64,000 nt of DNA from Cyanidioschyzon merolae (Eukaryota): assembly GCA_000091205.1 (NCBI GenBank), contig AP006483.2; one strand, written 5' to 3'. This document shows, piece after piece, positions 1 to 61,370 of this stretch. Both the position numbers and the translations under genes were made by a program. Position 1 is the first letter of the stretch; the number at the start of each line of letters is the position of its first letter. The notes under the pieces were generated by a model. That model ran no database searches. It was given only the letters and a program-made list of their open reading frames with translations, and had not been told where the DNA came from.

Positions 1-1200
1 TTCCCTCCGTATACCATGCTCAAATGCCGCATGCTTCAATTGTTTGGAACAGTTCGTTTTGAGGCTGCTCGTAGGGCAGCTATCTGTGCGGACGCACTGA
101 CGAGAAAAACTTCAGCGTCGTCATATGCGGAATCCTCCACAAGTTCAAGGAAAACGTTCTTCGAGACGAGCACGTCAAATCATCGATCTCGTTCGGAAAG
201 ACAAACCTTCATCTCTTTGCGGCCATCAATGAGATGGACATCGACACCCGGCTGATTCCCCTCATGGGATATGCGTCAAGACGCCCCCGTCGCTTCTTTT
301 TTGCACGGCAGAGCGCCTTGAACTCCGAATGCAGTCACCACAGCCATCGCTTCCGATGTCGAGTTCGGTACCGTGTTGCACGAAGCGAGCATGCGAGGAT
401 CGAAAATGCTCCGCATGATTTCCGATGTTGATTCTTATTCGGTTACTCGTTTCATCATGGACGACATCGTGTTCTAGAAATCCTGTATCGAATGGACCAG
501 CGTTCGCTACCCTCTGCAGCAGATAGAACAGGCTCAAAAGGGATCGCCCAGAAGAAAGCACGCGATCGAGGGATATCGTAAGGGGTACGGCATTGGGGAG
601 GCGCTTCGAGGAGAGGCCCCACGGACGTGTTTCAAGAGCATGCATCAAGCGATGATATGAGTCTTCATGCGCCACAGGGCAGCGCCCGACGGTGGAGCTG
701 TTGTTGAGCTTTCGGAAATACTGTCTATAGCAAAGTGTAACCGCTGCGGGGAGTGCACTGCAGAAGTAGGCAAAGGCGTAGAAAACGGCAAGCAAAGCGT
801 AGCTCGCGACGAACTTCGGTACCTGAAAAATGTCGACAACAGCTGGAAGCTGCAAAATCGCGATGTTTCTGCTTCCATCAATACCTTTTGACTCCAAGCA
901 ATAGAGCTGAAGGGAAAGAAGAGCCCGGCGTGTTTCATGCCAAAGCTCAACGGGAGAGGAAAACAATGCAGTTGAAGAAAAATCCGCCAGAAGCTAGTGT
1001 CGATGACAGTGGACAGTGATACAAACTTCAGCATGGACGCCCGAGTTGGCTGCGTGCGCCTTGCCCATTTCATTCGAACATGAGTATAACGCATCCGGCA
1101 TTCTACAGCAGCGATGACACCACATGGACAGGGACGAAGGATCTGGGCCCTAGACGATCCGCAGCGTTGCACGACGTGCGCACCTTGCGTATCCAGCCCG

Positions 1201-1400
1201 CTTCCCCGGATGCCTCCATGAAAACCATCATCGGGTATGTACCATGCATGGCGATGATGCGTTATTCAGTGAGAGGGAAATGCAAGCCTGCACGCCTTGC
1301 CCGAACGCCTCTATGAAAACCATCATCGGGTATGTACCATGCATGGCAACGATGCGTTTATCAAAGAACCCGGGCTCGCGTGCTGCCTCGCAGCTGGTAC
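1201..1400. repeat. Imperfect direct duplication with ~100-bp period; ~55-bp core (ctccatgaaaaccatcatcgggtatgtaccatgcatgg...) at 1211-1262 and 1311-1362
   Basis: Two near-identical ~52-nt blocks 100 bp apart, read directly from the sequence; each contains GTATGT. Confidence 0.6.
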
Positions 1401-2447
1401 GCCATTTGCGTCGGACGCGCTCCAGTGCGTGGATCCGACTCGAGCGTGCGACAGTCAAGTTGCTTCATGGAGGCAGCTGTGGTGTCTGTTTAGGTAACCA
1501 GCGATCATCATCATTTTGCGCATTGGATTCTTTGGGATTCGCGTGAGCAAACCTATCACGGACGCATTAGAGAAGCAGAGGAAACACCTGATCTCTCGAA
1601 AGCGGACACCTGCCAGGGTACACGACAGAGCCCTTCTGTACTGATTCAACAGCCAGGGCTGCGCATTCAGCGCGATAGCTAACCCATGCACTCGACTCGA
1701 AATCGTCAAGTTTCCAGCAAGTACGGCGTTTCTCTATTGACACTGCATGCATCCTATTCTAGATGTTGTTGAACGCGACGGCTTCGTAACATCTACTGCG
1801 CTTTCATCCCTACCAACAAGTACAAGTGCCAGATCCACAGCCGGATCGCCAGAAGTATCGATCTCGTCCCGGAAAAAAGGACTTGGAGCCCGCATTGCCA
1901 GTCGCCCGCATCTCTAGGGCCGTTTGATGCACGCCGCAGCGGCACTGCGTCCATTGCTGGTGCAGCGCCAGCGCGGTACCCTCGGCGATGTCCGCTTTGT
2001 CCAGACCTAGGATCGATTTCGAGAGCGTGCCTCGCCTGCGTTCGACGCGAGGGCGTACACGTGTCCCATTTTCTCCTCCGACGGTTCCACGTTGTAGGCC
2101 TACCCGCGATCGCCGGCCATTCTTTTCTTTGCAGATTGGTGCACTTACCCAAATAAGGCAGTTCGGAGCGGGCATAGTTCTCCGCTCTATCTCTACTGCC
2201 AAGTCCGACACTTTTGGGGTTATCGGTGCAACAAGGCAGGTCTCGGTGTGAAACAAAACTGGCTTGGGCGCTAGCTGCCGGAACAAACCGCCTCGTACAG
2301 CATACCGTGCCTCAGGGCGAATACCCCTGGGAGCGGTGCTGAACATCGTAAAGTGCGTTCCAGATAACAAAGACTGTTCAGGGGGGTTTTGGTATCTGAT
2401 TGAACTTATTGCGAAAGCCTTTGACTCCATTGTTTTATTGGTTTGAC

Positions 2448-3645
2448 ATGTACGGATCAGGTGCTGGAGCCTTTGCGGGGCAGGAGCAGTTCGCCGCGCA
2501 CGCAAGTCGACGGACCTCGTTGGAGATGCCGTTGCAGGAGCGGGCCACGCACGCGGCCCCTCGAGGTGAACTCGAAGCTGTCGGTCAGAGCGCTGCATCG
2601 CAGGCGAGTCCGAGCGACGCTGCGTCGCCCGCGGAGCGTCCCAAGCCCGCTTCCTCTGCGAGTGCTTGCTCACACGCGAGCGTGCCGCTCTGGGAGAAGC
2701 GGTCGTTACCTGGATTCCGCATCGACACGACACCCGTGGTCCATACGAACGGAAAGGATTCGGGTTTTGGAATTCGCTCGGGCAGTACGCTGTCGTTAGC
2801 TTCGCGCTCAGATGCGCCTGGCGACGCGGTGCATATACCTTCTCGCAGGGGTACCCTGAGTAACCTGAGCAGAGCGAACCTAAGCGAGCAGCCCTTTGCT
2901 ATCTCGCCGACGAAGAAAGAGCTGAGATCGCCCGGTGCGCTCGAGCCGAATATCGGACGCGGCTGCAGCAGCTGCCGACCCGCACACACAGGAAACCGGA
3001 CTCCCGGCTGGGGCGCGCAGTCGCGCACATCTACGCACGAGACACGTCCAGAAGCGCACCCATGGACAACACCAACAGCAGCAGCAACAGCAGCAGCAGC
3101 AGCACATCCACCACGGACGCCTGCAAGTGCACCGCCCATTGGCGCCCACGCAGTCAACGACCTGTACAAAACAGAACTGTGTCGGTCGTGGATAGAGACT
3201 GGCGCCTGTCGCTACGGGAGCAAGTGTCAGTTTGCGCACGGACAGGAGGAATTGCGCCCGCTACCCCGCCATCCGAAATACAAGACCAAAGTGTGCAAAA
3301 ACTTTGCGGAAAATGGAAGTTGTCCCTACGGGAGCAGGTGCCGCTTTATTCACGAACGTACCCGAACGGGAAGCTTTGAGGGTCTCGAGCCCGAGCTCCT
3401 AGCTGTCGTGACGGCTGGCTCCAGCGCGACACCACGCAAACTGCCCATCTTCGAGCAGCTCCACCACAGCATCGAAATCGATACCGCCCGCCCGCTTGGC
3501 GCCAGACCTGCGACACCCAGTCGCGAGTGTGTCTCGCCGGAGCGCCAGCGAGACCGCTTTTTCGGAACATTCGTTGCTGAGCCGCCTTCGCCTCCGTCGC
3601 CTGTGCTGTCGTCGCCTGTGCTGTCGTCGTCGCTGCCGCCTAACT

Positions 3646-5297: not shown

Positions 5298-5379
5298 AAG
5301 CGAGATGGCGCAGCGGAAGCGTGATGGGCTCATAACCCATAGGTCCGACCGAACGCTCTTTTGCCACTCGCCTCGCTCC
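5298..5379 (+). tRNA. tRNA-iMet-derived sequence with aberrant T-arm (pseudo-tRNA or tRNA-derived element)
   Basis: AGCGAGA-TG-GCGC-AGCGGAA-GCGT-G-ATGGG-CTCATAA-CCCAT-AGGTC is near-identical to eukaryotic initiator tRNA-Met through acceptor 5' strand, D-arm, anticodon arm (CAT) and variable loop. The following 25 nt do not form a canonical T-arm. A partially complementary acceptor 3' strand (CCTCGCT) followed by CCA is present. Confidence 0.3.
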
Positions 5380-8727: not shown

Positions 8728-11700
8728 TTACCAAGGCACAAAGTCTGCAGGGATGTTCTCGAAAACCCCAATGGTGCCGTCGTGTGCTGCAACGACGACC
8801 ACCAGGCCGTCAGAAGTGGACGTTGCGCGCAGCAGTGCCGCCGTACCAGTTGCAGACGACGACAAGGGCGTTGCTGCTGCTGCTGCTGCTGCTGTTACTG
8901 GTGCTGGTGCTATTTTCGCACGTGTTGGGTAGATGGAAGTGGACGGGCTTCGCTCGATGACGTCCAGTCGATTGGTGCTGCGCTGGGGTGCAAACACCGC
9001 AGCTGTAACGTGCGCTTCACCGAACGGCATGAAGGCCTCGAAACGGTCGTTACGGTAACGACGAATACGAGGCAGTTGACTCGAACTGGTACCGTCGCGG
9101 CTTGTGCCTGCTGCTGCGCTGCTGGACGGATTCGAGGTCAATGCGGATGCGGATGCCCGTTCCGACAGCATACGGTCTGGATAGTACTGCTGCTCGGTAC
9201 GGGCCGCATTCGTCGTGCTACTCGGGTTGTTGGTGTTGGTAATGGGCCCTGAGTGCCGCGTCTGCGGGTTACTCGCAAGTGCCGCTGACGCTTCGGGTGC
9301 CATTTCATGAGCTGCAGCAGCGGTGCCGCCACCTGCGTCACGCAACCGGGGCGTGCCTTTCGACCACTGGCTTAGGTGCAAGGCACAACCGGGTGCGCTG
9401 TGGTGTCCGGCTTGCTCGTACAGCACCGTATTCCAGATGTAGACGAGCCGATCCTCACTAGCCGTGATCACGTACCGAAAATCGTCACTGAAACTTGCCC
9501 GGATATGGTTCCAAGTACAGGAGTGTCCGACGAACTTGCTTACAATGCGCAAGTCCTGAACCCGATACAACCGTATACGACTGTCGTTGGTGCTGATCAA
9601 TACTTCGTAGTGCTGAGAGCTGTTGCTGCTGCTGCTGCTGCTGCCGGTGTTGCTGCTGCTGTGTGCACTCGGTGCCATGGTCGCTGCAAACTCGTTGCCG
9701 GCGTTCTGTCCAGGTACGAAAACGTTGGAGGTCGTCGACACCGCTGGAGCGGTACTGCCGCTGCCGCTGTTGGTGCCTCGACCAGGGCCTCGATCCGGTG
9801 TTGGCATCATGGCGAAACTGGTGATTTTGCTGCCCTTGCTATTGCGTCCGCGACGACTGTGCACCTCCAGGGTCGTGATGTACTGGAGAGCCCGTTCGCC
9901 CTCCTCGAAACGGACAACGTTGTAGACTTTGCACTCACCGCGATACGTGCCAACGAGCGCCTGCTCGCCGTTGGGTGTAAACCCACAAGCGGTTACGAGG
10001 CCCCGCACTTCTGCATAGTCTGAAACGTGCCGCGAGCTAATGTTCCAGAGACGAATACGCTCGTCCAAAGAGCCACTGAGGAAGAAATTCTCGTTCCGCG
10101 GATGAAAGGCGACACAGGTTACAAAATCGGCATGCAGGAACTTGCGCAACACCTGGTTGTAGTCTACGTGCCAAAGACGCACAGTTTTGTCCATAGAGCT
10201 GGATAAAAGGAAATTATTGGCAGACCACGCGACACAGAGAACGTCACCCCCGTGTCCGCGAAACACTCGATGAGGCTCTCGGACCTCGAATAGACAGCGT
10301 GCGTACAGACGCTCGGGTCCGTCGTCCACGGTGACCGCTGCTCCGTCGCTGCTTTCCGGAGGCGGGGTCAGCAGCCTTTGAAACGCTCGCGCGCCTGCCG
10401 TAGCCGGTGAGCGCAACCAGCTGGCAATCTCCAACAAGTCCGCATTCGAATAATTCAGCGTGTGCGGCTCGTTCTGCACTTTCCAAACCATGATCACGGC
10501 GTCTTGACCGCCAGTCGCCAGATATCGACCATCGGCAGAGAATTCCATACTCCAGACAGGTCCTGTGTGCGGCCTGAAGCACTGTACCAGACACATGTTG
10601 GCGGTGGTGTTAGCTCCTCGCGACTTGTTCGGAGCATGGACGCGCACAAAGCGCTGTGCAACACGGAATTCCCGAAGCAGCCGTTGGTACTCGCGCTTGT
10701 TCAAAGCGCTACCCTTTTCAGGGAACTTGAATAGAAAGCGCGGCCTACCGAGTACGGTCGTGTCCTCAGTGATAGCGCGTTGCGTCGCTGTACTGGCAGT
10801 AGCTGGTGCGGCGGCTTTTGTAAGCAGGCCCCGGTCGAGGCTGCCCGCGGGTGACCGAAAATCCTCGACTGTGTCGTCGACTACGGAGCCGAACGCTTTT
10901 CCATCGCCAGCGAGCGGCGTCTCTGCGGCCGCACCGGCGGTTGATGTCAGCGATGTGAGCGAGTCTGCACCGGCTTGCACTCGCTGTGTATTGAGCATTG
11001 CACCGTCTTGCCTGGTGCGGGTCGCTGCCGACTTGCTGTGCTGCAAAGCCGCGGCTTGTGTCGAGGATATCGAGGGCGACGCATGCGTCGGTGCTGTTTT
11101 CGCGCGCGGTAATAATGAAAATGCTCGAATTCGCCCCAGTGGCGTCGAGGAAAAGGTACGTGAACGGCGACTTTTCGTACCGGAGCTTGCGCCCGTCGGA
11201 TCGTCCTGGTGGGGGTCACGACGCTGCATGACGGAACGTTGTCGCCGCATCAGTTGCTGCACTGTATCCGCGGAAGTCATCTGGGCAACTTCCTGCTCAG
11301 TGAGATACCGTTCTTCACCGGTATCCAAGTTCTTAATAAGAAATTCTACACCCTGCTGCGGCTTCCTCGAATCACCCGCGGATCGCTCTCTCATCCGAGT
11401 GATCACTTGAAACCCAGCTTGATCCACTTCAGCAGTACCGAACTCTAGAAGCAGATCTCGTCGACTCGAATCCGGAGACGGTTTGCGCAGTGGCTGGGTT
11501 AGCCTGTGCAGCAAACTGCGTCCCGACTCTGGGGCAGTGCTGAGGCGGCCCCTCAGGTCCGTGTCACCACCTGCACTGGTGCCGATTGGTGCAGCTAAAC
11601 TGCCGCTTCCGCTCCTTTCGAAAGCCGGCGGGTACGTGGCGTCATCGACACTGCGGCTGCGATGCCGCTGACCGGTGCTGGAACCCGAGCGCTGATGCTC

Positions 11701-12168
11701 CGGGTGCCTTGCACGCGTCTCCGAAACTATACTGGTCCGTTTGGGAAGGTTTTTCCCGACGAAGCCTCGAACGGAAGAGAGGAAGCCGCGGAAGCTCAAC
11801 CACGAGGAGTCCGAAGCAGGTACATCGGAGCTGGAGCCCACCTCACCGAGTGAATGTCGGGCAGCAGCTGGTCCAGCGATGTCACTAGTTGATACAACGG
11901 CACCGCCAGTGCCTCTTTCGATTTCCGATACCAACGACTTGCAGTCAAGGGGTGCGGGATCCACTTCTGTGGTCTCTTGCGGAGTGGCAGCCAGGTCGAG
12001 TGCGCTACCGTAGGAGCGCAGTGACGAATAACTCATTTCAGGAAGCGCAGAGCCCCGGGAGATACGCTCAGGGCTCGAGTCAAAGCTCTCTGTTCCCGTA
12101 CGCGATCTTGAATCACTCGCGTCACTGCCGATACGTACATAACGCCCAGAGAGCGTCTTTTGATTCAT
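8728..12168 (-). CDS. WD40-repeat protein, WDR44 (rabphilin-11)-like
   Basis: WD40 block HTGPVWSMEFSADGRYLATGGQDAVIMVWKV...FRGHGGDVLCVAWSANNFLLSSSMDKTVRLWHVDYNQVLRKFLHADFVTCVAFHPRNENFFLSGSLDERIRLWNI... matches WDR44 family repeats. Long low-complexity N-terminus. TAA stop at 8728-8730. Confidence 0.75.
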   Translation of the reverse strand: MNQKTLSGRYVRIGSDASDSRSRTGTESFDSSPERISRGSALPEMSYSSLRSYGSALDLAATPQETTEVDPAPLDCKSLVSEIERGTGGAVVSTSDIAGPAAARHSLGEVGSSSDVPASDSSWLSFRGFLSSVRGFVGKNLPKRTSIVSETRARHPEHQRSGSSTGQRHRSRSVDDATYPPAFERSGSGSLAAPIGTSAGGDTDLRGRLSTAPESGRSLLHRLTQPLRKPSPDSSRRDLLLEFGTAEVDQAGFQVITRMRERSAGDSRKPQQGVEFLIKNLDTGEERYLTEQEVAQMTSADTVQQLMRRQRSVMQRRDPHQDDPTGASSGTKSRRSRTFSSTPLGRIRAFSLLPRAKTAPTHASPSISSTQAAALQHSKSAATRTRQDGAMLNTQRVQAGADSLTSLTSTAGAAAETPLAGDGKAFGSVVDDTVEDFRSPAGSLDRGLLTKAAAPATASTATQRAITEDTTVLGRPRFLFKFPEKGSALNKREYQRLLREFRVAQRFVRVHAPNKSRGANTTANMCLVQCFRPHTGPVWSMEFSADGRYLATGGQDAVIMVWKVQNEPHTLNYSNADLLEIASWLRSPATAGARAFQRLLTPPPESSDGAAVTVDDGPERLYARCLFEVREPHRVFRGHGGDVLCVAWSANNFLLSSSMDKTVRLWHVDYNQVLRKFLHADFVTCVAFHPRNENFFLSGSLDERIRLWNISSRHVSDYAEVRGLVTACGFTPNGEQALVGTYRGECKVYNVVRFEEGERALQYITTLEVHSRRGRNSKGSKITSFAMMPTPDRGPGRGTNSGSGSTAPAVSTTSNVFVPGQNAGNEFAATMAPSAHSSSNTGSSSSSSNSSQHYEVLISTNDSRIRLYRVQDLRIVSKFVGHSCTWNHIRASFSDDFRYVITASEDRLVYIWNTVLYEQAGHHSAPGCALHLSQWSKGTPRLRDAGGGTAAAAHEMAPEASAALASNPQTRHSGPITNTNNPSSTTNAARTEQQYYPDRMLSERASASALTSNPSSSAAAGTSRDGTSSSQLPRIRRYRNDRFEAFMPFGEAHVTAAVFAPQRSTNRLDVIERSPSTSIYPTRAKIAPAPVTAAAAAAATPLSSSATGTAALLRATSTSDGLVVVVAAHDGTIGVFENIPADFVPW

Positions 12169-12264
12169 AACCTGCTCGGCAGCGTTGCCGCTCAGCGTGT
12201 TCCGCTCTGTTCCGCGTTATTTCCGGAACCTTACGCAAGGTCTTGAGTGCTGGGTTCCACGGAG

Positions 12265-12282
12265 ACACACACACACACACAC
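12265..12282. repeat. (AC)9 dinucleotide microsatellite
   Basis: acacacacacacacacac in the WDR44 upstream region. Confidence 0.8.
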
Positions 12283-12689
12283 CGGTTCGCAAGCCTTGCA
12301 CGCTCCACTGAAAGCAACCTTGTCCGCGCCACGACAAGCTCACCCGCTTTTCCACCTGCAATAAGTGCACTGGAGCTCCTCAGGAAGCTCAGGTTCCTGG
12401 AATTTTACTCGTACAAACGAGTTTCTTACGATCCGCGTTGACTCGTTCCGTTGGCGTCGCACGAGCACTAGTGCCAGCTCGCAAAGCAAAACACCCCTGA
12501 CCGGAATGACGACACTCGGGCGCCACTGGCCTGTCTCCAGCAAGCTTCGCAAGAAGCCACTGACCACAGACTGATAAAGTGCGTTAACGAAAACTTACCT
12601 CGACGGAAGCAGGCACCGCTAAGGGAGTAAAGAGCGCGTTCCTCCGAGCTACAAAGGCAGCTCACTGGTGTCGACGTCGAAACCCGTAC

Positions 12690-12852
12690 AAAAACTCCAG
12701 TATCTAACCAGTAGGTTCTGCAACTGCTTCCCTGCGCACAAGTCGGCGCGATAGAGCACGCCACACCGATCGCCTGCTTATCGATGCACCGACGTGCACA
12801 AGTCTCCCAGTCTTTTTGACCGGCTCCCTGTTACCGGTTTCAACTTGTTCTT
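12690..12852 (-). ncRNA. Candidate omega-RNA scaffold region: conserved tail immediately 3' of the Fanzor-like ORF
   Basis: Sequence downstream of the stop stays alignable between the two copies (e.g. gacgtgcacaagtctccc vs gatgtgcagacgccccc; caactgcttccctgcgcacaagtcggcgcg vs gaacgcttctcaaacgacgaacgtcgccgcc). Homology decays near 12700. Contains the local hairpin TGCAC-GTCG-GTGCA. By analogy with TnpB omega-RNAs overlapping the ORF 3' end. Confidence 0.3.
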
Positions 12853-15042
12853 CTACGTTTCTACCTTGAGAGGCTGACCGACAAAGTTGTCTCTCGTCAG
12901 TTCCAGGAGTCTCTTCTCCAGCACGGCATAGCTCTTTATATTGATAGAAGCACTAAAGTCTCGGTTCACGCACTCCAGGCGTTTCTCGTCGCCGCTTGTA
13001 CTCACCAGTGCAGGGAGTCCTCGAACCTGTGCCCTGCTTTCCATTTCCTGCCCTTCCGTCACCGCTCCGTACTTTTGGATATCCCCAGGGCTCCTTTGGC
13101 ACTTTTCCATCTCAACCCTCTGAAGTGTACACCCTAGCTCGTGATGAATGGATGACGTTCCGAACGCATTTATCAGTATCGAAACGAAAAGGTGTGCGCA
13201 GTCCTTGTACGCTCGTGTCGACGGAGCTGGTATACAACCTTTTGTGGACGCCCAGCGTCCTGATCCGTATGCTAATACGAGCATTTTACGCTTGTCCTCC
13301 TTGAGGGCCCTCAACTCATTGAAGAACTTGTCAAATGCACGCTGCTTTCCTCTGTGCAGACGCATATGCAGACGAGCCCATCTGGTCTTGGTGTACTGTT
13401 GCCACAGCGCCTCCCAATGAGCAGTACAAACTTTCATGAATTCCAGAAAAGCCTCAAAGTCCGCTCCTCGGCTAGTCACCTCGCTCAAAGCTTCCAGGTG
13501 CTCTTTCACTCCTCGATTCTATTCCTTAATTTTTTCCTCGCGTTCATTTTTCCGGATTCTCGATCGTATCTTGCTCTCGAGAAATTTAAAAGACACATGT
13601 CTTCTGACGTAAGCTGCCGTCAGTGCCATCTTCCGCACGCTTGGGTGCTGCGATGGTCATGATATTCGTGTCCCCAGGGTCCGCGCCAACGACATTGTCG
13701 TTCTCCTGGACCTCCTGCATCACAGGATCCGCCTCGTATATATGTTCATGTTTCGTCGCGGGCGAAGCCGGGGACGGAACTGGACGATCTACCTTCAAGC
13801 ACTTATAATCTACAAATATGGCTACTCCATCACTTTTGATCATCCCAGGGAATAACTTTTGCTTGCTCACTTTGAGGCGTTCGAAATCGAACATATTCTT
13901 CCAGTACGTCTCCCGGTTTTCACCGGAGAACTCGAAATTCCTTACATCGAACTCTGGACTGATCTCCTTCATGATGCCATGAAGGACGCTCGAGTCGATT
14001 GCCACAATATCTGACTTGACGGTGCACAACGGAGCGACATGGAAGCGCTTACCCATTAGGGCAGCCTCCCGTCTCTCCGACTCTTCATTTTTTCCCCACT
14101 CAGCTTCATCTCTGCCTTGCGTTCGAGTTCTCGGTCCAAAAACACAAAATACCGTAGAATGAGGCGATAGTATCTTTCCGTATCCTTTTTCAACTCTGAT
14201 ATCTTTTCTACTGGATTCGCTAGCCCCAGTACCGCACGACGCTCTTGAATAGACGCACGGATTCCAGAAGCTTCATTCCTTCTCATGTGTGATGTCTTCT
14301 TGTCTACGGATTCGATCCTCTGTTCATTCTCCCTATCGTTCGTGATGCCATCGATGGTGACCCATCTCGCCCTGTGAGGCAGGGCCGCCTATAATGCAAA
14401 CGCGGTGCGTATCATGAAACGTTCGAGGTTCATAGTCATATCGCTCATCAGGTACGTGGGGTACTTCATCGCTCCGTAGGTGCGAATTCGCCAGTCTCCC
14501 CTCTATCGAGTACCGTTGAGGCGGTATTCGGCGTACTTTTTGTGCAGTATACACACTCGCGCATTTTTCGTCGACATATCCCAGGTGCTTACCATCCGGT
14601 AGCGTATAACGGTCTCGTTGAAAAATTCCTCCGGAACCTCGACTTTTTTGGTGTCCGTCACGTTGTTGTATATCTCTTTTACCAAATGCACTAGTACTGG
14701 AAAAGCCTTTACAATACTCAAGGAGTACGACTCGACACGGTTTCCGATGGCCTCTCGCAACTTCTGCTTGTACGGATCCTTGATACATCCAAGAAAACGA
14801 GCTTTCACTACCATCTCGTCGTACTGTCGTCTTTGATGCAGGCATAGACGTCTGGGATCCTGTCTCAGCTTCTTGGACGTGTCTTGTTCCTCTTTGCTCG
14901 GCACTGTTCTCCGTTTTCTTCCGGCAGCCGGTGACACCAGGCCTCCAGGATCCTCTACTTCCTTCTCCACAACTTGCCTTTTTTCTATAATTTTAGATTG
15001 AATGCTCTTTGAACGCCTCTGCTGTAAACAGTGTAAAATCAC
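12853..15042 (-). pseudogene. Fanzor/TnpB-like RNA-guided RuvC endonuclease gene (~730 codons), interrupted by 2 in-frame TAG codons and 3 frameshift points
   Basis: Segments 15042-14503, 14286-14056 (same frame, TAGs at 14503-14505 and 14389-14391), 14056-13586 (frame change at an A6 run near 14075) and 13509-12853. RuvC-I NVVGADPGDTNIMTIAAP (Asp 13679-13681). TS/Zn-ribbon remnant SSIHHELGCTLQRVEMEKCQ. RuvC-III ECVNRDFSASINIKSYAVLEKR (Asp 12958-12960), the hallmark xRDxNAAxNI of TnpB/Fanzor. Confidence 0.6.
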
Positions 15043-16020
15043 TTGAATTCACTAACTTGAGGGTCGAAGCATAAGTGAACTGAAAACTATACTTTGTTAT
15101 GACTTGAATGTAAATACAAGTTGTGCGTTAGACACCAAGTCAACGAATGATCAGGATCGCATATCCCTTCAATGCCGAGATGCTCGTCGCGTCTGATGCC
15201 TCCAAGATGCGGAAATGCGCTAACCGACCGGACTATATAGAGCAAAGAACAGAAACGAACCATTAAATAGCAACGAGATGGCAATTTCTTTCCCCTCTAC
15301 GGTAAACGTTAGAAAATGGCAAACGCTTTCCGTATAATCGAATGTCTACAGGTGGCATGTCCCGCGTGCCGGACGAGTCTGCAGGGCTAATGCTTCGTGC
15401 TCGCCCCAGTGGCAGATGCTTTATTGAGACCTGCGCAACTCGTCCGAAACGCTGCTTATTCTGGGACTAGGAGCGGCTAGCTTGCATCTGGGCATCGCGC
15501 TTGTCTCAGCGGACTCCTCGTGTATTCCTTCGCGCTGCCGCATGCAGTAGATCTGTCTGAACAGATTCCAAGCCCCCAGAATAATAATGAATCGCGACCC
15601 GGTATCGCGCTAGCCACGCCTCGAGCCAACGTCATCACTCGCATGGTAAAAACGATCTATCTCCGTGATGCTTGTGCTCCAGCGGCATAGGCGCTCCTGC
15701 AGGTACAGCACGACAGGCACTCGGCGCTCGATCGAACGCACAAAACGAATTGTATATCCGAAAAGAAGTATAGGTCATGCAACTTGGAGAAAGGATGCAG
15801 CAGCACGATGTACGCCTCCTCGAAAGCCAATATCCATCCAATCCGCAACCTGAAATCCAAGGTCAACGGACACTTTTCAGCCATCGACAGAATTCCCGCT
15901 GCGCTACGCCGCGCGTACCCGCAGGCTGCGCGCAGGCGCCCCGTTTCCAATCGATTCGAGCGTTTTCAAACGCAGTGCTCCGTATAGGCACGAGTTCCAG
16001 CGCCAAAAGTGCGTGATAGA

Positions 16021-16320
16021 ATGCCGGCTCAGCAGATACAGTACTCGGAAAAATATTATGATGATACATACGAGTACCGTCACGTTATTCTGCCCCCAGA
16101 TATTGCGCGTCTTTTGCCGAAGAACAAACTTCTCAGCGAGGCAGAGTGGCGGAGCCTTGGCGTGCAGCAGTCACGGGGCTGGGTTCACTACGCTATCCAT
16201 CGACCAGAGCCCCATATTCTCCTATTTAGACGCCCGTTGAACTACTCGCAGGGTGCTACTACTGCGACGACGGGGCTATCGCAGAACCCTTCTGAATCTG
16301 CCTCACACGCCGTTCCGTGA
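16021..16320 (+). CDS. CKS1: Cyclin-dependent kinase regulatory subunit CKS1/Suc1
   Basis: [73 protein letters not shown] is a near-perfect match to the CKS family across the whole domain. TGA stop. Confidence 0.9.
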
Positions 16321-17230
16321 ACAGCAGAGGATGCGGGGAATCGCTCACCGGCCGCGTCGTTCGGGTGACAGCGGTAGCATTCCCCAGCAAAAAACGTCTT
16401 GATGCAAGCGGTACTAGATGCTTGTATTCGGTTGCGTTGAAGTTACTGCATTCGTTCTTCTGAAACTGTCGCGGAATGAGACCGGGTGTGGTACGACTGG
16501 TCAGGGGTGCTTTGCAGCAAGCCCAGGCCTCGTTTGACGGGAGTATGCGAGCTAGCGCCCCAGCGCGCTCGCCACCTCAGGTACACGCTTTCAGTTCAAT
16601 GCCTCTGGTTGTCTGATTGGCATGGTCCGCTTCGGATTCGGTCTCAAGAGTTGTGACGCTGCGTGCGCCGCCTTGCCCTACTTTCCGCAGCAGCAATGCT
16701 GCGGGCCTGCTCGGCAACCGTGAGAGTTGACGTTGTCTGGGGTTCGCTGAAGACGCACAGGCAACTGATTCCCCTGAAAAGGTTCGAAGTAGCGGTGATT
16801 GCGCTCCAATGTCCAGAGATGCTACGCAAATAGCGTTATAGCGGATCTTTTGGACCAACAGGGACGAAAGCATGGATTGCGCTTACCCGACAGCACCTGG
16901 ACGATGCTTACAACCTGACGAGTGAGGGCCCCGTGTGCTCGTAATGAAAATTTGCACAGTTTAATGTGAACGCAATTTCGTAAAATCGAATGCTCACATC
17001 TAGCATCTGCACCTGAAGCGGTCGAGGAGGCAGCGTCTCTGTCGCGGCGCATCAGACATGGACGCCAATGCAGCAGCCCTGTTACAGGAACGGATTGCAC
17101 ACAGCGGGTGTACGTAAGCTGTTCAAGCAAGTGCCCGTCCCCCGCCTGCAACGCACAGGGCGGGATCGCCTGCTCAATAGTGCGGTATCCGTGCGCCCCA
17201 GCACGATGCTAGCCGCTCTAGAGATGGGTG

Positions 17231-48642: not shown

Positions 48643-49751
48643 GTCTAGTCTCGTCTACTCCAGGCTAGGCAACACAGAAAGCACACACATGGCTAGCTTT
48701 ACTGTGAATCCAACGGACTCGTGTACCGGTCAGCTGTGACATCTGGACAGTTCCTGGTCTCTCCGCTGCTGCGCTCCTTCTATTCGCGTTTGTTTTCAAC
48801 TCCGCCTACCTAAAGCGTCCATTCCAAGCCGAGCGCTCGACGCCAGCATACGCAACAAATACCGTACCACTTTTGAACAGTATCATAGCGTCGAGGCTTG
48901 CAAACGAAGACAAGCGCTGCATCCAGCGGCTGCGCACGCAGTCGACGCGCTCTGAGCCTACGGAACACGTCAACGCTGCACGTGCGGAAGGTCCTGCTCG
49001 TTCCTCGTCCGAGCAGACGAGTTACCAAAGCGCTCAGGGTTTCGATGACGCTCCAGCTACGCGCGTTTACTCCAGAGTGATACAATTACTAGCGCGCCAA
49101 GTCGGCTGAGTAGCCTCGTTACAACGATTCTACTCTGCTCTGACCGCGAAAAGCTTATGCTGGATGTGCATACTCCGCCAAGTCATACGCTAAGCGTAAC
49201 GAAGAAGTTGCTTCTTCCCTCGGGGCAAACGTATGCGCCCAGACTGAGAGCTCTCGCGACGTCCGCACCTCACGTCAGGATTCGGAGCCGGTTCAGCTCG
49301 GATCGACGCGCCAGCACAATGCCAAAAAGTTCTGTCTGCACAGGTTTAGGCCACAACATTGAAAGTACAACGCATTTCAGTTCGTTGCAGTGCAGTTTCG
49401 AAGACAACAAGGCGTGCCTGCGGTAGTCCCAGTGGAGTCATACGCTGCGAACTTGCCACTGCGGGGAAACCGCACCATATGACCATTGCGCAGCAGTGGT
49501 GCTCTCGGCGAAGCGTTCACGGGAAACTTGCTGGAGTCGGGGTCTCGGAACACTTCCAGGAAGCCTGCTGAACAAGCGACTCACCCTCGATCTATACCAG
49601 GGAAGCAGCCTAGGCGAACCGCTGTGTCCGACACACACACACACGTAAAGACTGGCAAAGGTTGTTCCGGAGCTCGTGTCTTCGCAGTCGTACAAACGGC
49701 TCGCGCCGTCGAACGAGGCTTCCAAGAAAGCGCGTACGCAGCTGTTCCGCA

Positions 49752-52700
49752 ATGCCGCTTCCGTCAGCACAGACGCGTCGCTTTATTAAAAGAGCAAGAG
49801 GTGCTGGTGCCACTGGGCAGGCCTCGGTGCTCCGCGTCTCCCGGGAGCACTACTTGCGGAGTGATCTACCGCTGCCTCCGGAGCCAGCCCTGCGGCCGTT
49901 TCTCTTGGTACCCGACACGAACGTAGTGCTGCGTGCAGCGAGCCTTTTCGAACTCGATGCCGTCCAGGAGGTTGTCTTTTTGCAGACCGTGCTGCAGGAG
50001 ACCCGCAAACAAAGTCCAGAGACCTACGATCGCATACGGCGACTGTTAGCTTCCCCGGAAGCGAAGCGCCGACACCTCTACCTCTTCAGCAATGAACACT
50101 GTGCAGCAACGTTCTCGGAGCCACTAAAGGGTGAGTCACCAAACGACTACTACGACCGGCTGATTCGCAAGTCTGTGGCGTGGTTGAATACTCAGTACAA
50201 CGCACTGCAGGGGCCGCGAGTGGTGCTCCTCACCGAGGATCGCGAGAACGCTCGTCGAGCCAGAGACGATGATCATCTGGTTACCTTCAGCCTCGCGCAA
50301 GTGGATGCATGGTGTGCGGGCGCTGCAGACACGCGAGTTAGGGACCTAGTGGCAGACTCTGGCGGTCACCATGATGCAGCACTGAACGAAAGCGCTTCGG
50401 AAAAAGCGCATGCAGCACCTGCGTCCAGGACGGAGTCTGCGCCCTACCCGGAGTACTGGCCAGTCGACAAGGTTGAACGCGCGCTCGCCAGTGGTAAACT
50501 GTTCCGTGGCGTATTTCGTGCAACCATGTATGAGCCGTTGGAGAGCGGTGTAGTGGTCATTCGGTCGCCAGCGGGAAATGCGGAGCCCCAGAAGACACAG
50601 GTCGCCACACAAGTGCAGCCAGCGCTGCGCATTCGGGTCCAGGGCGCTGCCGCCGTGAATCGTAGCGTTGACGGAGACCTCGTCGCTGTGCTACCACTGG
50701 ACGGCGTTGTCGACGGAGCAGCCAGTGCTGGTCGAAATGCGATACCGACCATCGACGCAGACGCCTTCAGTAGCGTGACAGAGCAGGTGGTGACAGCTGC
50801 CTCTGCACTGGGATCCGAGTCCTCGGATCCGCTGGCTTCGACGCCTTCCCAGGGGCCTCGTCTTGGGAAGATTGTTGCAGTGCTTGAGCGCCGTTGGCGT
50901 GCGCAGTACTGTGGATCGCTGCAGGCCAAATACACCGCAGATACATTGAGTTTCCAAGGTCGCAGACGACACCTCTTTTTGCCGGTGGATCGGCGGATAC
51001 CCCCGATCCTACTGGAGACACTGCAGGCAGCGTCTCTCTACGGCAAGCGGGTGGCTGTTGCTCTTGATCGCTGGGATACCCAATCGCGTTTCCCGGTTGG
51101 TCATGTGGTCAGCGTGCTGGGGCGCATTGGCGATGAGCAAGTCGAAACGCAGGTTTTGCTTCTGGAGAACGGCATTGTGACCCGACCGTTTTCGGAGGCG
51201 GCGCTAGCGTGTCTGCCTCCACCAGACTTTTCCGTTGCGCCTGCCCCGATGGATACCACGCTGGTTGGTCGCCTCGATTTGCGGTCTATGTTTGTTTTCA
51301 GTATCGACCCACCGGGGTGCACCGACATCGACGATGCGTTGCACTGCCGCCTCGTGGATCGGAGCAATGGACAGGGAGCAAATGCGAGAGCGTCGACTCG
51401 CCTTCAAGTTGGCGTGCATATCGCTGATGTGGCGAGCTTCGTTCGAGCAGGGACAGCACTCGATGAAGAGGCACGGGAGCGTGGCTGCACTGTCTACCTG
51501 GTGGACCAGCGCATCGAGATGCTGCCGGCGCTGCTAACGAGCAACCTGTGCTCGCTGGTTGCGGGCAAGGATCGGTATGCGTTCTCGGTTCTCTTCGAGT
51601 TGGACGTTGAATCTGCCCAGATTAACGATGTCCAGTTTACACGCAGCATGATTAGGTCACGAGCATCGTTGACCTACGAACAGGCTCAGTTGATGCTGGA
51701 TGCATTGGTTGTCGACAAACAGAGCGCGAAGCAACTGGGGATACCGCCCGAGCTAGGCGAAGCGCTGCCGCTTCTAGCCCGCGTTGCAGGAAGACTGCGG
51801 GCTGAACGACTCGCCAATGGTGCGCTCATTCTCGCGTCACCGGAGATCCGTTTCGAGCGAGCGGATGGTGAGAGCCCGAGTCCCAGCGTTGGTTCAGGCT
51901 CCAGTTGTCGCAGTTTTGACACGCACCACCTCGTCGAGGAGTTTATGCTGCTCGCAAATGTGACGGTAGCTAAGCGCATTGTGCACCAGTTTCCGCACTC
52001 GGCGTGCTTGCGCCGACATCCTCCGCCGAGTGTCGAGCAGTTTGAGCCACTGGTACGGGCGGCAGCAGCATACGGAATCGAGATGCACGTGGATTCGTCC
52101 AAGGCGCTTGCGGCAAGTCTCGACGCCGTCTCAACGACCTCAGCTGGCCAAGAGGACCCACTGCTGGAAGAGCTGTTTCGGATGCTTGCAACTCGTTGCA
52201 TGATGCAGGCTGCATACTGCTCCGCTGGCTCGGCTCCTGCGTCATCCTACTACCACTACGGACTCGCAGTGCCGCTGTATACCCATTTCACGTCACCGAT
52301 ACGGCGCTATGCCGACATTATTGTACATCGCCAATTGGCAGCAAGCTTGGGGTATGAGGATGCTCCTGGTGAGTTGCTCATGAATGAGCAAGTCGAACGT
52401 ATCTGTGAACACGTGAACGAACGCTATCGCAATGCACAGGCCGCAGGACGAGCGAGTTCTGCGCTCCATGTGTTGCTCTGGTTCCATCGGCAATGCCAAC
52501 GCCCAGCTCATGAAGCACGCGATACGGCCTCGATGCTAGAGACAGACGGCCGAATTCTGCGATTCTTGTCGACTGGATTTGTGGCGTACCTGCCCAAGTT
52601 TGGTATTGAGGGCGTCGTTCGCGTAGACGGTGCAGAGACCTCCTGGGTATTGAGCCCTGATTCGCAAACGATCCTCCATAAGGACTCGGGAGTGACGTAC

Positions 52701-52898
52701 CGTATTTTGGGCGCTTGTCGTATTCGAATTGTTATTGATGAAAATGCTGTCGGTGCCGATCGTATTCGATTCGAGCTGCTTCCTAGGAACGCCAACAACG
52801 CCGTTCAAAGTCGAACGACGTCGGGCGTGTGCAGTAGTGGCGGCAACCGCGCCCAAGACGAAACGTCTCCTACTGACGTACAGATGCCACCAAAATAA
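49752..52898 (+). CDS. DIS3: Exosome catalytic subunit DIS3/RRP44 (PIN plus RNB exoribonuclease)
   Basis: N-terminal VLRVSREHYLRSD and PIN motif LLVPDTNVVLRAASLFE. RNB core FSIDPPGCTDIDDALHC...VGVHIADVASFV...TVYLVDQRIEMLP. S1-like C-terminus. Met at 49752. Confidence 0.85.
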   Translation: MPLPSAQTRRFIKRARGAGATGQASVLRVSREHYLRSDLPLPPEPALRPFLLVPDTNVVLRAASLFELDAVQEVVFLQTVLQETRKQSPETYDRIRRLLASPEAKRRHLYLFSNEHCAATFSEPLKGESPNDYYDRLIRKSVAWLNTQYNALQGPRVVLLTEDRENARRARDDDHLVTFSLAQVDAWCAGAADTRVRDLVADSGGHHDAALNESASEKAHAAPASRTESAPYPEYWPVDKVERALASGKLFRGVFRATMYEPLESGVVVIRSPAGNAEPQKTQVATQVQPALRIRVQGAAAVNRSVDGDLVAVLPLDGVVDGAASAGRNAIPTIDADAFSSVTEQVVTAASALGSESSDPLASTPSQGPRLGKIVAVLERRWRAQYCGSLQAKYTADTLSFQGRRRHLFLPVDRRIPPILLETLQAASLYGKRVAVALDRWDTQSRFPVGHVVSVLGRIGDEQVETQVLLLENGIVTRPFSEAALACLPPPDFSVAPAPMDTTLVGRLDLRSMFVFSIDPPGCTDIDDALHCRLVDRSNGQGANARASTRLQVGVHIADVASFVRAGTALDEEARERGCTVYLVDQRIEMLPALLTSNLCSLVAGKDRYAFSVLFELDVESAQINDVQFTRSMIRSRASLTYEQAQLMLDALVVDKQSAKQLGIPPELGEALPLLARVAGRLRAERLANGALILASPEIRFERADGESPSPSVGSGSSCRSFDTHHLVEEFMLLANVTVAKRIVHQFPHSACLRRHPPPSVEQFEPLVRAAAAYGIEMHVDSSKALAASLDAVSTTSAGQEDPLLEELFRMLATRCMMQAAYCSAGSAPASSYYHYGLAVPLYTHFTSPIRRYADIIVHRQLAASLGYEDAPGELLMNEQVERICEHVNERYRNAQAAGRASSALHVLLWFHRQCQRPAHEARDTASMLETDGRILRFLSTGFVAYLPKFGIEGVVRVDGAETSWVLSPDSQTILHKDSGVTYRILGACRIRIVIDENAVGADRIRFELLPRNANNAVQSRTTSGVCSSGGNRAQDETSPTDVQMPPK

Positions 52899-57271: not shown

Positions 57272-60007
57272 ATGTTTCGTGCTCGCTCTCTGGTACGTGC
57301 CCTGGGAGTAGCTGTTTGTCTATTGTTGGCGGCGACGTTTTCCGTTTCGCTTGTGGCTGCGTTGTCGCCTGTGAGTACGGTTAGCTGGACCTGGATAGGT
57401 GGAGAGACGGGTGTCAATAATCCTGGTAATTATGGAACGCTGAACCAGACTTCAGCAGATAGTGTTCCAGGAGGCCGTTCCGATTCAGCAGCCTGGGTCG
57501 GAAGTTCGAGCTTGGTATACTTGTTTGGCGGGCTTGGGTATGGAAACCCATATCTGAGCTACTTTAATGATCTATGGACCTTCAACTTGACCTCATATGA
57601 ATGGACGTGGATAGGAGGTTCCTCAGAAACCGACCAACCAGGAGTGTACGGCACAGTCGGCACAGGCAGCCCAAATAGTATACCCGGCAGCCGTTACGGA
57701 AGTGCGTATTGGCAGACGGACGAGCACCATTTTTGGTTGTTTGGAGGACTCGGCTTCGATGTGAACGGTAATCAGGGCGAACTGAACGACATGTGGCGGT
57801 ACGATACTGAAACGGGAATCTGGACGTGGTTCAGTGGGAATGATACTTTTAACGCCAATCCAGTCTATGGACCGAAGGATATCTACAGTCAAATTTACAA
57901 CCCCGGAGGCCGAGGTAGCGCGGCATTCTGGCTAGGCGCGGACGGTTTGTTTTGGATTTTTGGTGGTGCGCGTATTGCGTATGATCTTCTGTCAGATCTC
58001 TGGTCATTCAACCCTGTTACATTCGAATGGGCATACAGAGGCGGATCACAACTTGTTAACCAGCCTGGTAACTATAGCGCACCTGGCGTGGCGAGCAACT
58101 CAAATGCCCCAGGTGCGCGCGGCTTCTCGCATACGTGGACAGATTTTGAAGGAAATCTCTGGTTGTTCGGCGGCTATGGCTACGGAAACAGCACAGCACT
58201 AGGGCAAGGCGAATTGAATGATCTCTGGGTCTACAACATAAGCCAATCCGTATGGATTTTTATCACAGGGAATACCACTATTAACAATCCAGGATCATAT
58301 GGAAATCTCGGTGCTTTCTCCCCAACCAGTTACCCAGGTGCAAGATTCTCAGGCGTAAGTTTTGTGGATCCTTTGGGTAATCTACAGCTGTTTGGCGGTG
58401 CGGGACTCGCCAATACAAGCGAATCCTTTGGCAATTTGAACGATCTTTGGGTATTTGATATCACACTTGGTCAGTGGGCGTGGATCAATGGAAGCCAAAG
58501 TGTGGATGCTCTTTCAGTATATGGAGTTTTGAACGAATCCGACCCGAGTGTTGTACCTGGTGGTCGCTTTGGACCAGCTTTCTGGAACACCAGTGGGACT
58601 GATCCGCTCATATTTGGTGGAAGTGGATTCTCGAACACGAGCAGAGGTGGCTTTCTCAATGATGCCTTCGCTTTGAGAGAAACGTTCTTTACGCCTACCT
58701 CTACGCCTACGCCAACATCAACGCCAACTCTGACACCTACAATTACGGCAAATGCTACTGCGACCCCGACACCCACGCTGACACCTACACCAGTCTGCAC
58801 CATTGAGATCTGCGGCTCTCCAGGACAGTACACCAACCAGGACGCTTGCGAGCAAGTCGGATGCTGCTTCAACTCCCAGACAAACGCGTGCACCCTGAAG
58901 AGCGTCTCAGTGGCGTGCAGCGCTGTTCCAGTGACGCAGCGCGTCCCCTGCGGCTGGAGCTACATCTACCCCGACGAGTGCACTGCGATACCGGGATGCT
59001 GCTGGCAGCCCACAGCGAACGGCATCCTCGCGCCCTGGTGCTACTACGACATCAACCATGCACCGCAGGCTTCTGTAGCGCTGCAGGAGGTGCAGGCACC
59101 AGTACCCGTCTGCCCGTCACCGGGAGCGCAGCGCCAGCCGTGCGGCAACGCGGGTATCAACCAGTTTACATGCTATGCCCAGGGCTGCTGCTACGACTCG
59201 CAGGCGCAGAACCAGTGGGTGCAGAACGGCAAGCAGCAGAGCGACTTTGAGTCGAACCCGTACTGCTTCCAGCCCGAGAAGACGTGCGCGGTGGGCGAGT
59301 TTGAGCGCCAGCCGTGCACGAATGCGGTGAATCAGAACCAGCAGCTGAACAATAACATCAACAATAACCAGTTTGTGCGTCTGCTGAACACGCTGCTGTA
59401 CGGAGAGCAGCATCGGACGCAGCGCACGAGCTACTCGCCGCAGCAGTGTCTGGAGGCTGGTTGCTGCCTGGGGCTCGGCAACGAGTGCTTCCAGCCGATG
59501 ACCGAGTACGTGTGCCAGACCTACGGGTACGTCTCGAACTCGCTGAGCGGCACGACCGGCAACGTGTCGAACTCGAGCTATATTGCTTGCGGCCCCGAGT
59601 GCTGCAACGCCGAGACGCAGAACTGTACGTACAACCCCTTCAGCAACAACAACAACCAGCAGCAGCAGCAGCAATTGCAACAACAGCAACAACAACAGGT
59701 GCTGCTGCCGTCATTCTGTGTGTGCAAGGACCCAACGAAGCAGTGCGGGACGTACCTGATCCCTTCGGATAACCTTGTGAACAAGGTGCGTTGCTGCCGC
59801 GCTGACGAGGAGTGCATCAACAACCAGTGTGTGGTGATTAGTCCAACACCGACTCCGAGTCCCGTGGCTGTGACAGCGACACCCTCTGCGACGGTGTCTG
59901 CAACAGTCTCTGCGACAGCTTCTGCGACGGTGTCTGCGAGTGCATCAACGAGTGCATCAGCGAGTGCTTCAGTTTCAGCTTCTGTGTCGACGTCTGCGAG
60001 CGCCTAG
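57272..60007 (+). CDS. Secreted protein: signal peptide, six Kelch/galactose-oxidase-like propeller blades, Thr/Pro linker, four trefoil (P-type) domains, poly-Q/N and Ser/Ala/Thr-rich C-terminus
   Basis: MFRARSLVRALGVAVCLLLAATFSVSLVAA signal. Repeated NDLW.(F/Y)..........W.WI.G blades. TPTSTPTPTSTPT linker. Trefoil consensus R/QxxCG........C...GCC(F/W/Y)........WC(F/Y) four times (e.g. RVPCGWSYIYPDECTAIPGCCWQPTANGILAPWCYY). Confidence 0.7.
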   Translation: MFRARSLVRALGVAVCLLLAATFSVSLVAALSPVSTVSWTWIGGETGVNNPGNYGTLNQTSADSVPGGRSDSAAWVGSSSLVYLFGGLGYGNPYLSYFNDLWTFNLTSYEWTWIGGSSETDQPGVYGTVGTGSPNSIPGSRYGSAYWQTDEHHFWLFGGLGFDVNGNQGELNDMWRYDTETGIWTWFSGNDTFNANPVYGPKDIYSQIYNPGGRGSAAFWLGADGLFWIFGGARIAYDLLSDLWSFNPVTFEWAYRGGSQLVNQPGNYSAPGVASNSNAPGARGFSHTWTDFEGNLWLFGGYGYGNSTALGQGELNDLWVYNISQSVWIFITGNTTINNPGSYGNLGAFSPTSYPGARFSGVSFVDPLGNLQLFGGAGLANTSESFGNLNDLWVFDITLGQWAWINGSQSVDALSVYGVLNESDPSVVPGGRFGPAFWNTSGTDPLIFGGSGFSNTSRGGFLNDAFALRETFFTPTSTPTPTSTPTLTPTITANATATPTPTLTPTPVCTIEICGSPGQYTNQDACEQVGCCFNSQTNACTLKSVSVACSAVPVTQRVPCGWSYIYPDECTAIPGCCWQPTANGILAPWCYYDINHAPQASVALQEVQAPVPVCPSPGAQRQPCGNAGINQFTCYAQGCCYDSQAQNQWVQNGKQQSDFESNPYCFQPEKTCAVGEFERQPCTNAVNQNQQLNNNINNNQFVRLLNTLLYGEQHRTQRTSYSPQQCLEAGCCLGLGNECFQPMTEYVCQTYGYVSNSLSGTTGNVSNSSYIACGPECCNAETQNCTYNPFSNNNNQQQQQQLQQQQQQQVLLPSFCVCKDPTKQCGTYLIPSDNLVNKVRCCRADEECINNQCVVISPTPTPSPVAVTATPSATVSATVSATASATVSASASTSASASASVSASVSTSASA

Positions 60008-61189: not shown

Positions 61190-61370
61190 GGTCTGAATAA
61201 GCGACGTAACGCGCCCGCACCGAACGCTTCTCAAACGACGAACGTCGCCGCCGGCCGTGTACGGTAGTGGAGGGAAAACCGCGCCTTGGACAAATCGTCT
61301 CCAACTGATGTGCAGACGCCCCCCGCCTTTCTCGACGAGCCACCCACTACTGCTTCCAACTTCTTCTCAT
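61190..61370 (-). ncRNA. Candidate omega-RNA scaffold region of copy 2 (homologous to 12690-12852)
   Basis: Conserved with the copy-1 3' tail. Contains the local hairpin CGTCT-N13-AGACG. In copy 2 this region is also open in the protein frame to a TGA at 61231. Confidence 0.25.

Follow-up and report, generated by a model that had tools for sequence, protein, structure and literature searches.

A decayed CMe-1A element carrying a Fanzor1 pseudogene lies between divergent WD40 and CKS1 genes in Cyanidioschyzon merolae

The stretch of Cyanidioschyzon merolae DNA analyzed here (64,000 nucleotides of contig AP006483.2, assembly GCA_000091205.1; hereafter, the window) belongs to chromosome 1 of strain 10D, as six of eight large open reading frames (ORFs) submitted to exact-sequence look-up are C. 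merolae 10D proteins (BAM78815-BAM78825). The window includes a WD40 gene annotated as 'similar to Rab11-binding protein' (8728-12168, minus strand) and the CKS1 gene (16021-16320, plus strand), which are divergently oriented and separated by a gap of 3852 bp. As proposed in an initial annotation made from the sequence alone, most of this gap is filled by a mobile element, which we identify here as a copy of the Fanzor1-bearing CMe-1A family (copy 1) and which occupies 83% of the interval. Copy 1 lies on the minus strand at 12695-15886, as determined by blastn and refined at its ends by MAFFT alignments and motif searches, with some uncertainty in the position of its 3' end (12682-12695). Its 5' end (~15886) is 135 bp from the CKS1 ATG and its 3' end ~520-530 bp from the ATG of the WD40 gene, and its GC content (~49-50%) is below that of the flanks (54-63%). 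The 3' end agrees with the one initially annotated (12690); the opposite boundary does not, since placing it at 15280, for an element of 2.6 kb, misses a 5' module of ~600-640 bp, and the total length of copy 1 is ~3.19 kb. A prokaryotic TnpB or contamination as the source of the sequence is ruled out by the flanking genes, which match C. merolae nuclear genes exactly.

The founding Fanzor paper (Bao & Jurka 2013, Mobile DNA 4:12; PMC3627910; Repbase) describes a single Fanzor1 family from C. merolae, CMe-1A, with ~150 copies, each ~80% identical to a 3169-bp consensus. According to these authors (PMC3627910), CMe-1A has no terminal inverted repeats (TIRs), its target-site duplication (TSD) was not determined, and it encodes a 734-aa, single-exon Fanzor1 protein; the 5' 635 bp of the consensus share 95% identity with TE-N2_CMe, a repeat in its own right, and some old copies are still intact. 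We took the CMe-1A consensus DNA and the CMe-1 protein from the supplement of that paper (PMC3627910) and compared them with copy 1. In the blastn comparison, consensus positions 9-3092 align with window positions 15877-12788 at 81.5% identity over 3106 columns, a match far beyond chance that, set against the ~80% published for family members, assigns copy 1 to CMe-1A at the nucleotide level. The CMe-1 protein likewise matches copy 1 with 68-76% identity over three frames in tblastn, and the order of parts is that of CMe-1A: a TE-N2_CMe-like 5' module, the Fanzor1 ORF and a short, hairpin-rich 3' tail. The two ends of copy 1 show no similarity when compared in inverted orientation, i.e. the copy has no TIRs. 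Taken together, these results indicate that copy 1 is almost certainly an old, inactivated CMe-1A insertion on the minus strand between the WD40 gene and CKS1. The element is already known, its family having been published in 2013 from C. merolae itself, and the initial view that Fanzor families are poorly described in this type of genome does not hold here, given that the founding paper reports CMe-1A with ~150 copies.

Read in its own direction, copy 1 starts with the 5' module (15245-15886, minus strand; consensus 1-635), which is TE-N2_CMe-like according to the consensus alignment and to PMC3627910. This module is followed by the non-coding leader of the Fanzor core (14971-15244, minus strand; consensus 636-905), which opens with a GC-rich hairpin, then by the pseudogenised remnant of the Fanzor1 ORF (12853-14970, minus strand; consensus codons 1-707 of 734, by tblastn) and finally by a degenerate 3' tail (12695-12852, minus strand; consensus ~3027-3169). 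The remnant is broken into minus-strand ORF fragments at 14503-15042, 14056-14286, 13586-14056 and 12853-13509, and these segments, together with the motifs quoted in the initial annotation, are present on that strand. The RuvC-I motif NVVGADPGDTNIMTIAAP (13643-13696, minus strand) keeps its Asp (consensus D431, codon 13679-13681), in a DPG motif of which, in the family alignment, the P is invariant and the D nearly so. The RuvC-III motif ECVNRDFSASINIKSYAVLEKR (12910-12975, minus strand) also keeps its Asp (consensus D672, codon 12958-12960), and the distance between the two Asp residues in the family consensus, 241 residues, is practically the ~240 initially claimed. Between them, the segment at 13096-13179 (minus strand; including SSIHHELGCTLQRVEMEKCQ) holds both the position of the alternative RuvC-II Glu and the degenerate TNB/zinc-ribbon position; here the consensus VDEFRTS has become INAFGTS, with Glu603 replaced by Ala (codon 13165-13167). 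The zinc-ribbon remnant initially read in this segment holds by position, which is that of the TNB site, but not by content, as the CxxC pairs are absent. At the other end of the protein, a basic stretch (KKRKTVPSPEEQEKTKKQKREARRQR in the consensus, RKRRTVPSKEEQ in copy 1 at 14884-14970) looks like a putative N-terminal nuclear localization signal.

The ORF of copy 1 has lost its start codon (ATG to GTG, 14968-70), which had gone unremarked, and carries four in-frame TAG codons rather than the two first counted: 14503-5 and 14389-91 (both from TAC), 13519-21 (from TGG) and 12853-5 (from TAT). The frameshifts at A-runs were correctly read, and correspond to three 1-bp deletions in A-rich runs (~14097, ~13604 and ~13534). 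Of the catalytic triad, both Asp residues are retained and the Glu is changed to Ala, whereas the family consensus, the second copy in the window (copy 2, see below) and the homologues keep D/E/D. The 3' tail is altered by a 9-bp insertion and numerous substitutions, and the arms of a long-range helix are lost. Copy 1 differs from the CMe-1A consensus only in this decay (lost ATG, four TAG, three frameshifts, E603A, 9-bp insertion and scrambled 3' terminus), and the ORF lesions and the degraded 3' tail make it non-functional, a molecular fossil. Measured against the consensus, the ratio of nonsynonymous to synonymous substitution rates (dN/dS) is 0.49 in copy 1 and 0.44 in copy 2. These values, intermediate between selection and neutrality, fit diversification in active lineages followed by decay, in keeping with the intact old copies noted by Bao & Jurka (PMC3627910), and indicate that the divergence accrued partly under selection in active lineages and partly after death.

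To characterize the family protein, we searched a large protein collection with the frame-repaired copy 2 protein, which returned 56 matches, nearly all from hot-spring-type metagenomes of the Joint Genome Institute (JGI). The closest homologue, P0001 (752 aa), is 64% identical to the repaired protein, and a second large search with the family alignment yielded only further close relatives, with no added diversity. The motifs conserved across the family are GxDPGxxN, VDEFRTS and VNRDxNAAINI. A three-dimensional model of the intact homologue P0001 was obtained with AlphaFold2 from a 17-sequence alignment (predicted local distance difference test, pLDDT, 73; predicted template modeling score, pTM, 0.62) and compared with the PDB using Foldseek. 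All seven significant matches are Fanzor1 structures (SpuFz, PpFz and GtFz), with probability 1.00 and E-values from 2e-16 to 1.4e-13; those of SpuFz (9cey, 9cez, 9ceu and 8gkh) span 2e-16 to 4e-15, with template modeling (TM) scores of 0.55-0.69. Next in rank are the TnpB of ISDra2 (E=0.019, probability 1.0), Cas12f and other Cas12 structures. The initial annotation had put forward structure prediction on the concatenated ORF as a check; run on P0001, it gave Fanzor1 structures as its only significant matches.

The same assignment is obtained at the sequence level. A hidden Markov model of the family alignment (profile A1) was used in hmmsearch against published Fanzor proteins (Z=1e6), and matched CMe-1 (6e-289), the Volvox proteins VCa-2 (1e-42) and VCa-1 (3e-23), CVu-1 of Chlorella (1.5e-15) and CRe-1 of Chlamydomonas (4e-8), with no match to the Acanthamoeba Fanzor2 ACa-1. 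In Fanzor proteins, the canonical RuvC-II Glu is replaced by Gly or Pro, and an alternative Glu lies downstream, beside the TS/zinc-ribbon motif (Jiang 2023, PMC10530073). Judged by motif only, the alternative Glu of the CMe-1 family is the one in DE-F-R-TS, as in CRe-1 (IIDEYKTS) and in translated PUl-1 (MDEYRTS), and the motif DE[FY]xTS recurs in other published Fanzor1 sequences; in our reading of the alignment, the upstream strand VVAYGAG places a Gly at the canonical TnpB Glu position. The family protein thus has the fold and the motifs of Fanzor1. Consensus identity, homologue fold and profile matches constitute three independent lines of support for the initial interpretation of copy 1 as a disrupted Fanzor/TnpB-type RuvC nuclease gene in a mobile element.

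Several observations weigh against this interpretation. The structural comparison was made on the homologue P0001 and not on the broken ORF of the window. The sole precomputed label on the homologues is PF26935/DUF8286, and the only match of profile A1 among PDB sequences, the Guillardia theta Fanzor1 at RuvC-I, is non-significant on its own (E=0.63); a phmmer search of the repaired copy 2 protein against PDB sequences returned none. CxxC zinc-ribbon ligands, a typical feature of TnpB and of many Fanzors, are missing from the CMe-1 clade, and we found no report of nuclease activity for any CMe-1 protein in the searched literature. The initial annotation had also named the Pfam models OrfB_IS605 and OrfB_Zn_ribbon as a check, with the lack of a significant match counting against its reading. 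Taken nominally, the outcome is of that kind: no ORF fragment of either copy has a Pfam match at E<=1, including the TnpB models PF01385 and PF07282, and the best match among nine distant homologues, to PF07282, is sub-threshold (E=0.006, 17 bits against a cut-off of 26.3). The element is therefore related to TnpB by fold and outside TnpB by Pfam definition.

Compared with known systems, CMe-1 is closest in fold to the solved Fanzor1 nucleases SpuFz1 (8GKH, 9CEU-9CEZ), GtFz1 (9CER) and PpFz (9CF0/1), with Foldseek E-values of 2e-16 to 1e-13 and TM scores up to 0.69, even though sequence identity is just 12-15%. It shares with them the split RuvC D...E...D, the Glu in DE[FY]xTS and a basic N-terminus, and the CMe-1 clade differs from them in having neither CxxC zinc-ribbon ligands nor an associated transposase or TIRs. 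The RuvC core fold is also like that of IS200/IS605 TnpB (ISDra2, 8H1J; OMEGA), at E=0.019 over ~270 columns. As in IS200/IS605, the gene adjoins the 3' end of the element, which is the site of a structured RNA for TnpB and of a candidate in CMe-1A, and the element lacks TIRs and has no reported TSD. In contrast with TnpB, however, CMe-1 is much larger, with an N-terminal helical half, has its Glu in the alternative position and no TnpA partner, and is a eukaryotic, presumably nuclear protein that falls below Pfam TnpB significance. Fanzor2 proteins (IS607-like; ACa-1 and the mimivirus ApmFz2) are also TnpB-derived eukaryotic or viral RuvC nucleases; membership in this group was rejected on the basis of the missing profile match to ACa-1 and of the absence of a recombinase ORF from the 3.2-kb element. 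The Helitron-borne Fanzor1 proteins of Chlamydomonas (CRe-1/2/3) are likewise algal Fanzor1 passengers in TIR-less elements (profile E=4e-8), but they have a CxxC...CxxC zinc ribbon and introns, whereas the CMe-1A gene is single-exon and the ends of the element are not Helitron-like. Membership in Helitrons or Replitrons was not adopted either, since the termini do not match those of such elements and red algae are reported to lack Replitron Reps.

The second diverged copy announced in the initial annotation is also a CMe-1A member. Copy 2 (61225-64000, minus strand; consensus 630-3169) is cut by the end of the window and is 82-86% identical to the consensus in blastn. It is 73% identical to copy 1 over ~2.4 kb of nucleotide sequence, and its frame-repaired protein is 51% identical to copy 1 over ~750 residues. 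Copy 2 keeps D/E/D (GADPGN, VYEFRTS and NRDFHAAINI) and is a pseudogene, with frameshifts at ~63665 (+2) and ~61593 (+1) and in-frame stops. Just upstream of its RuvC-I, TRF and blastn reveal a tandem array of 75 bp x 3.8 (62200-62482, minus strand), which is an in-frame expansion of consensus 2117-2196 and whose translation consists of acidic repeats resembling EADPATQEVQDxDFVV. The intact metagenomic homologue P0001 has a similar expansion, indicating an origin in an active lineage. A further trace of the family in the window is a solo 65-bp piece of 3' tail sequence from CMe-1A (52827-52891, minus strand; consensus 3073-3137, 88% identity).

The solo fragment falls, in antisense orientation, inside the final ~23 codons of a Dis3/Rrp44-like ORF (49662-52898, plus strand; RNB, PIN and CSD domains), and the C-terminal tail of this ORF may thus be transposon-derived.

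In a search for an empty site, window positions 12000-16400 were compared with environmental Cyanidioschyzon contigs from JGI. The four metagenomic contigs with an orthologous WD40 gene (L002-L005) all carry the copy 1 insertion, at 98.7-99.4% identity, and their flanking DNA is equally ~99% identical. No empty pre-insertion site was found among these four contigs, and, with all of them carrying the insertion, the exact ends and TSD of copy 1 are not definable by empty-site comparison. The copy 1 insertion long predates the divergence of the sampled strains. Two of the contigs (L004 and L005) break off no more than ~1 kb upstream of the WD40 gene, in the case of L004 inside the repeat, as is typical of assembly collapse at multi-copy elements.

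In all, 255 CMe-1A-type stretches were confirmed by tblastn in metagenome contigs, which, together with the two copies in the window, supports a mobile family. Junctions, ends and 3' tails were compared across 80 of the metagenomic loci (L006-L085). At these loci, from environmental Cyanidiales, the sequence on the 5' side of the Fanzor core (consensus ~640 onward) belongs to one of at least four unrelated modules: one is TE-N2_CMe-like, one pairs an inverted TE-N2-like terminus with an A-rich spacer, one contains the palindrome GGACACGTGTCC and one is a TAAGATAGTT... module. The GC hairpin stem at the start of the core varies with the 5' module (GCGCTC-GGT-GAGCGC versus GCGCG-GTCGATA-CGCGC). 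We could not match this 5' modularity to any counterpart in the 2013 description of CMe-1A. Independent copies, including copy 2 (window 61215-61225), show TTTG(T/A)TG or TTGATGGTG right after the consensus end (...GGCG), and have in common a T-run (TTTTTTC) directly before the consensus start CGATGACAAAACG. These shared flank motifs indicate either that the true termini lie slightly beyond the consensus or that insertion is site- and orientation-specific. More speculatively, the combination of varied 5' modules and shared flanks hints at site-specific insertion or RNA-guided homing beside other repeats.

The last ~150 nt of the element, including the final ORF codons, are strikingly conserved among the metagenomic relatives. 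With degenerate copies removed, leaving 31 copies, this region folds into a multi-hairpin structure with a 10-bp long-range closing helix (RNAalifold E=-38), and 86.5% of the cells of the trimmed structure are paired. Covariation is weak, with 10 double-change pairs versus 5.9 in shuffles and 16 of 500 shuffles as high, and RNAalifold predicted no structure on the full 39-sequence 3' alignment, results that belong with the adverse points listed above; an Rfam scan of the copy 1 element gave no match. The conserved CMe-1A 3' region can fold and is thus put forward as a candidate scaffold for an omega-RNA, stopping short of a claim that it is one.

The way in which an intact CMe-1 protein might act can be sketched by analogy with other Fanzors (Saito 2023; Jiang 2023, PMC10530073) and with the solved SpuFz, GtFz and PpFz complexes. 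With its basic N-terminus directing nuclear entry, the protein would bind an omega-RNA made by transcription of the 3' end of the element itself, with a scaffold overlapping the end of the ORF and a guide read from the flank. The single split RuvC site of the protein (D431, the alternative E603 and D672) would then cut guide-matched DNA adjoining a target-adjacent motif (TAM), and such guided cutting would presumably aid the persistence or homing of the element. None of this can run from copy 1, which has no ATG, four TAG, three frameshifts, a Glu to Ala change and a scrambled 3' tail.

An alternative reading concerns how CMe-1A moves. Instead of cut-and-paste transposition, the element might be non-autonomous and rely on an HUH-type enzyme acting in trans (Helitron- or IS200/IS605-like), or it might spread through nuclease-triggered homing, a scenario suggested by the lack of TIRs and of a reported TSD, by the hairpins at the core start and 3' end, by the orientation-specific conserved flanks (T-run 5', TTTG 3') and by the Chlamydomonas Fanzor1 proteins that ride Helitrons. 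We nonetheless consider this scenario unlikely: the element showed neither an HUH gene nor any other transposase gene (the genome was not searched for a partner transposase), Replitron-type Rep proteins have not been detected in red algae and the termini are not Helitron-like (no 5' TC, no 3' CTRR). A related and rather doubtful proposal is that the mobile unit is the hairpin-bounded Fanzor core (consensus ~640-3169), IS200/IS605-like and without TnpA, in which case copy 1 would be a fossil of core plus carrier and the last ~130-150 nt would be the omega-RNA scaffold. Such core insertion or homing events could have left the 3'-tail fragment at 52827-52891 behind as a footprint.

A CMe-1A insertion that is dead as a nuclease gene could also have been co-opted as regulatory DNA, with the promoter of CKS1, of the WD40 gene or of both lying in or against transposon sequence. 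Although this possibility is compatible with copy 1 being an inactivated CMe-1A insertion, and is favored by the proximity of the element to both start codons (135 bp from CKS1, ~530 bp from the WD40 gene), by its share of the gap (83%) and by its fixation in all sampled strains, we regard it as improbable, given that C. merolae intergenic regions are short and that 135 bp and ~530 bp could hold complete native promoters.

Much less probable is that copy 1 continues to work as a gene or has been domesticated by the host, with its lesions bypassed or with a sub-fragment in use, such as the 218-aa C-terminal ORF at 12853-13509. The insertion is kept at 98.7-99.4% identity in several environmental strains and its dN/dS versus the consensus is below 1 (0.49), but the flanks are equally ~99% identical between strains, so that retention is uninformative on selection, and a ratio below 1 is what one would expect from divergence accumulated in active lineages prior to insertion. 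Moreover, the ATG is lost, four in-frame TAG and three frameshifts interrupt the ORF, the catalytic Glu has become Ala and no gene is annotated between BAM78816 and BAM78817, which are consecutive accessions in the reference proteome. Finally, the notion that the motifs are a chance resemblance in a protein other than a RuvC/TnpB-type nuclease, which could draw on the lack of a significant Pfam TnpB-family match and on the empty phmmer search of PDB sequences, has a negligible probability and is refuted by Foldseek top matches that are exclusively Fanzor1 (E down to 2e-16, probability 1.00) and by profile matches to published Fanzor1 proteins that reach 1e-42, and the sequence was classed as Fanzor1 in the original Fanzor paper (PMC3627910).

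As one of ~150 decayed copies, and with nuclease production impossible, the CMe-1A insertion between the WD40 gene and CKS1 is in itself of little consequence. Its analysis illustrates that a reading based solely on sequence can recognize Fanzor motifs that are missed by Pfam models, and the corrected boundaries of the element matter for annotating promoters at CKS1 and the WD40 gene. It is the CMe-1 family that might deserve a closer look: the alga is thermo-acidophilic, the Fanzor1 gene has a single exon and no introns, and its 3' region is conserved and RNA-like. That interest rests on intact copies elsewhere and not on the copy 1 locus.

Two other features of the window were noted in the course of this work. 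Rfam reports a tRNA match at 5299-5366 (plus strand) that barely exceeds the gathering score (29.6 bits vs 29; E=0.042), and ARAGORN detects no tRNA in the window. The exact sequence of a 911-aa ORF at 57272-60007 (plus strand) is absent from the protein collection, where several other window genes are present, and the reference gene model is therefore probably different; as read here, the ORF encodes Kelch repeats and two trefoil (P-type) domains, together with Thr/Pro-rich linkers and poly-Gln/Asn runs.

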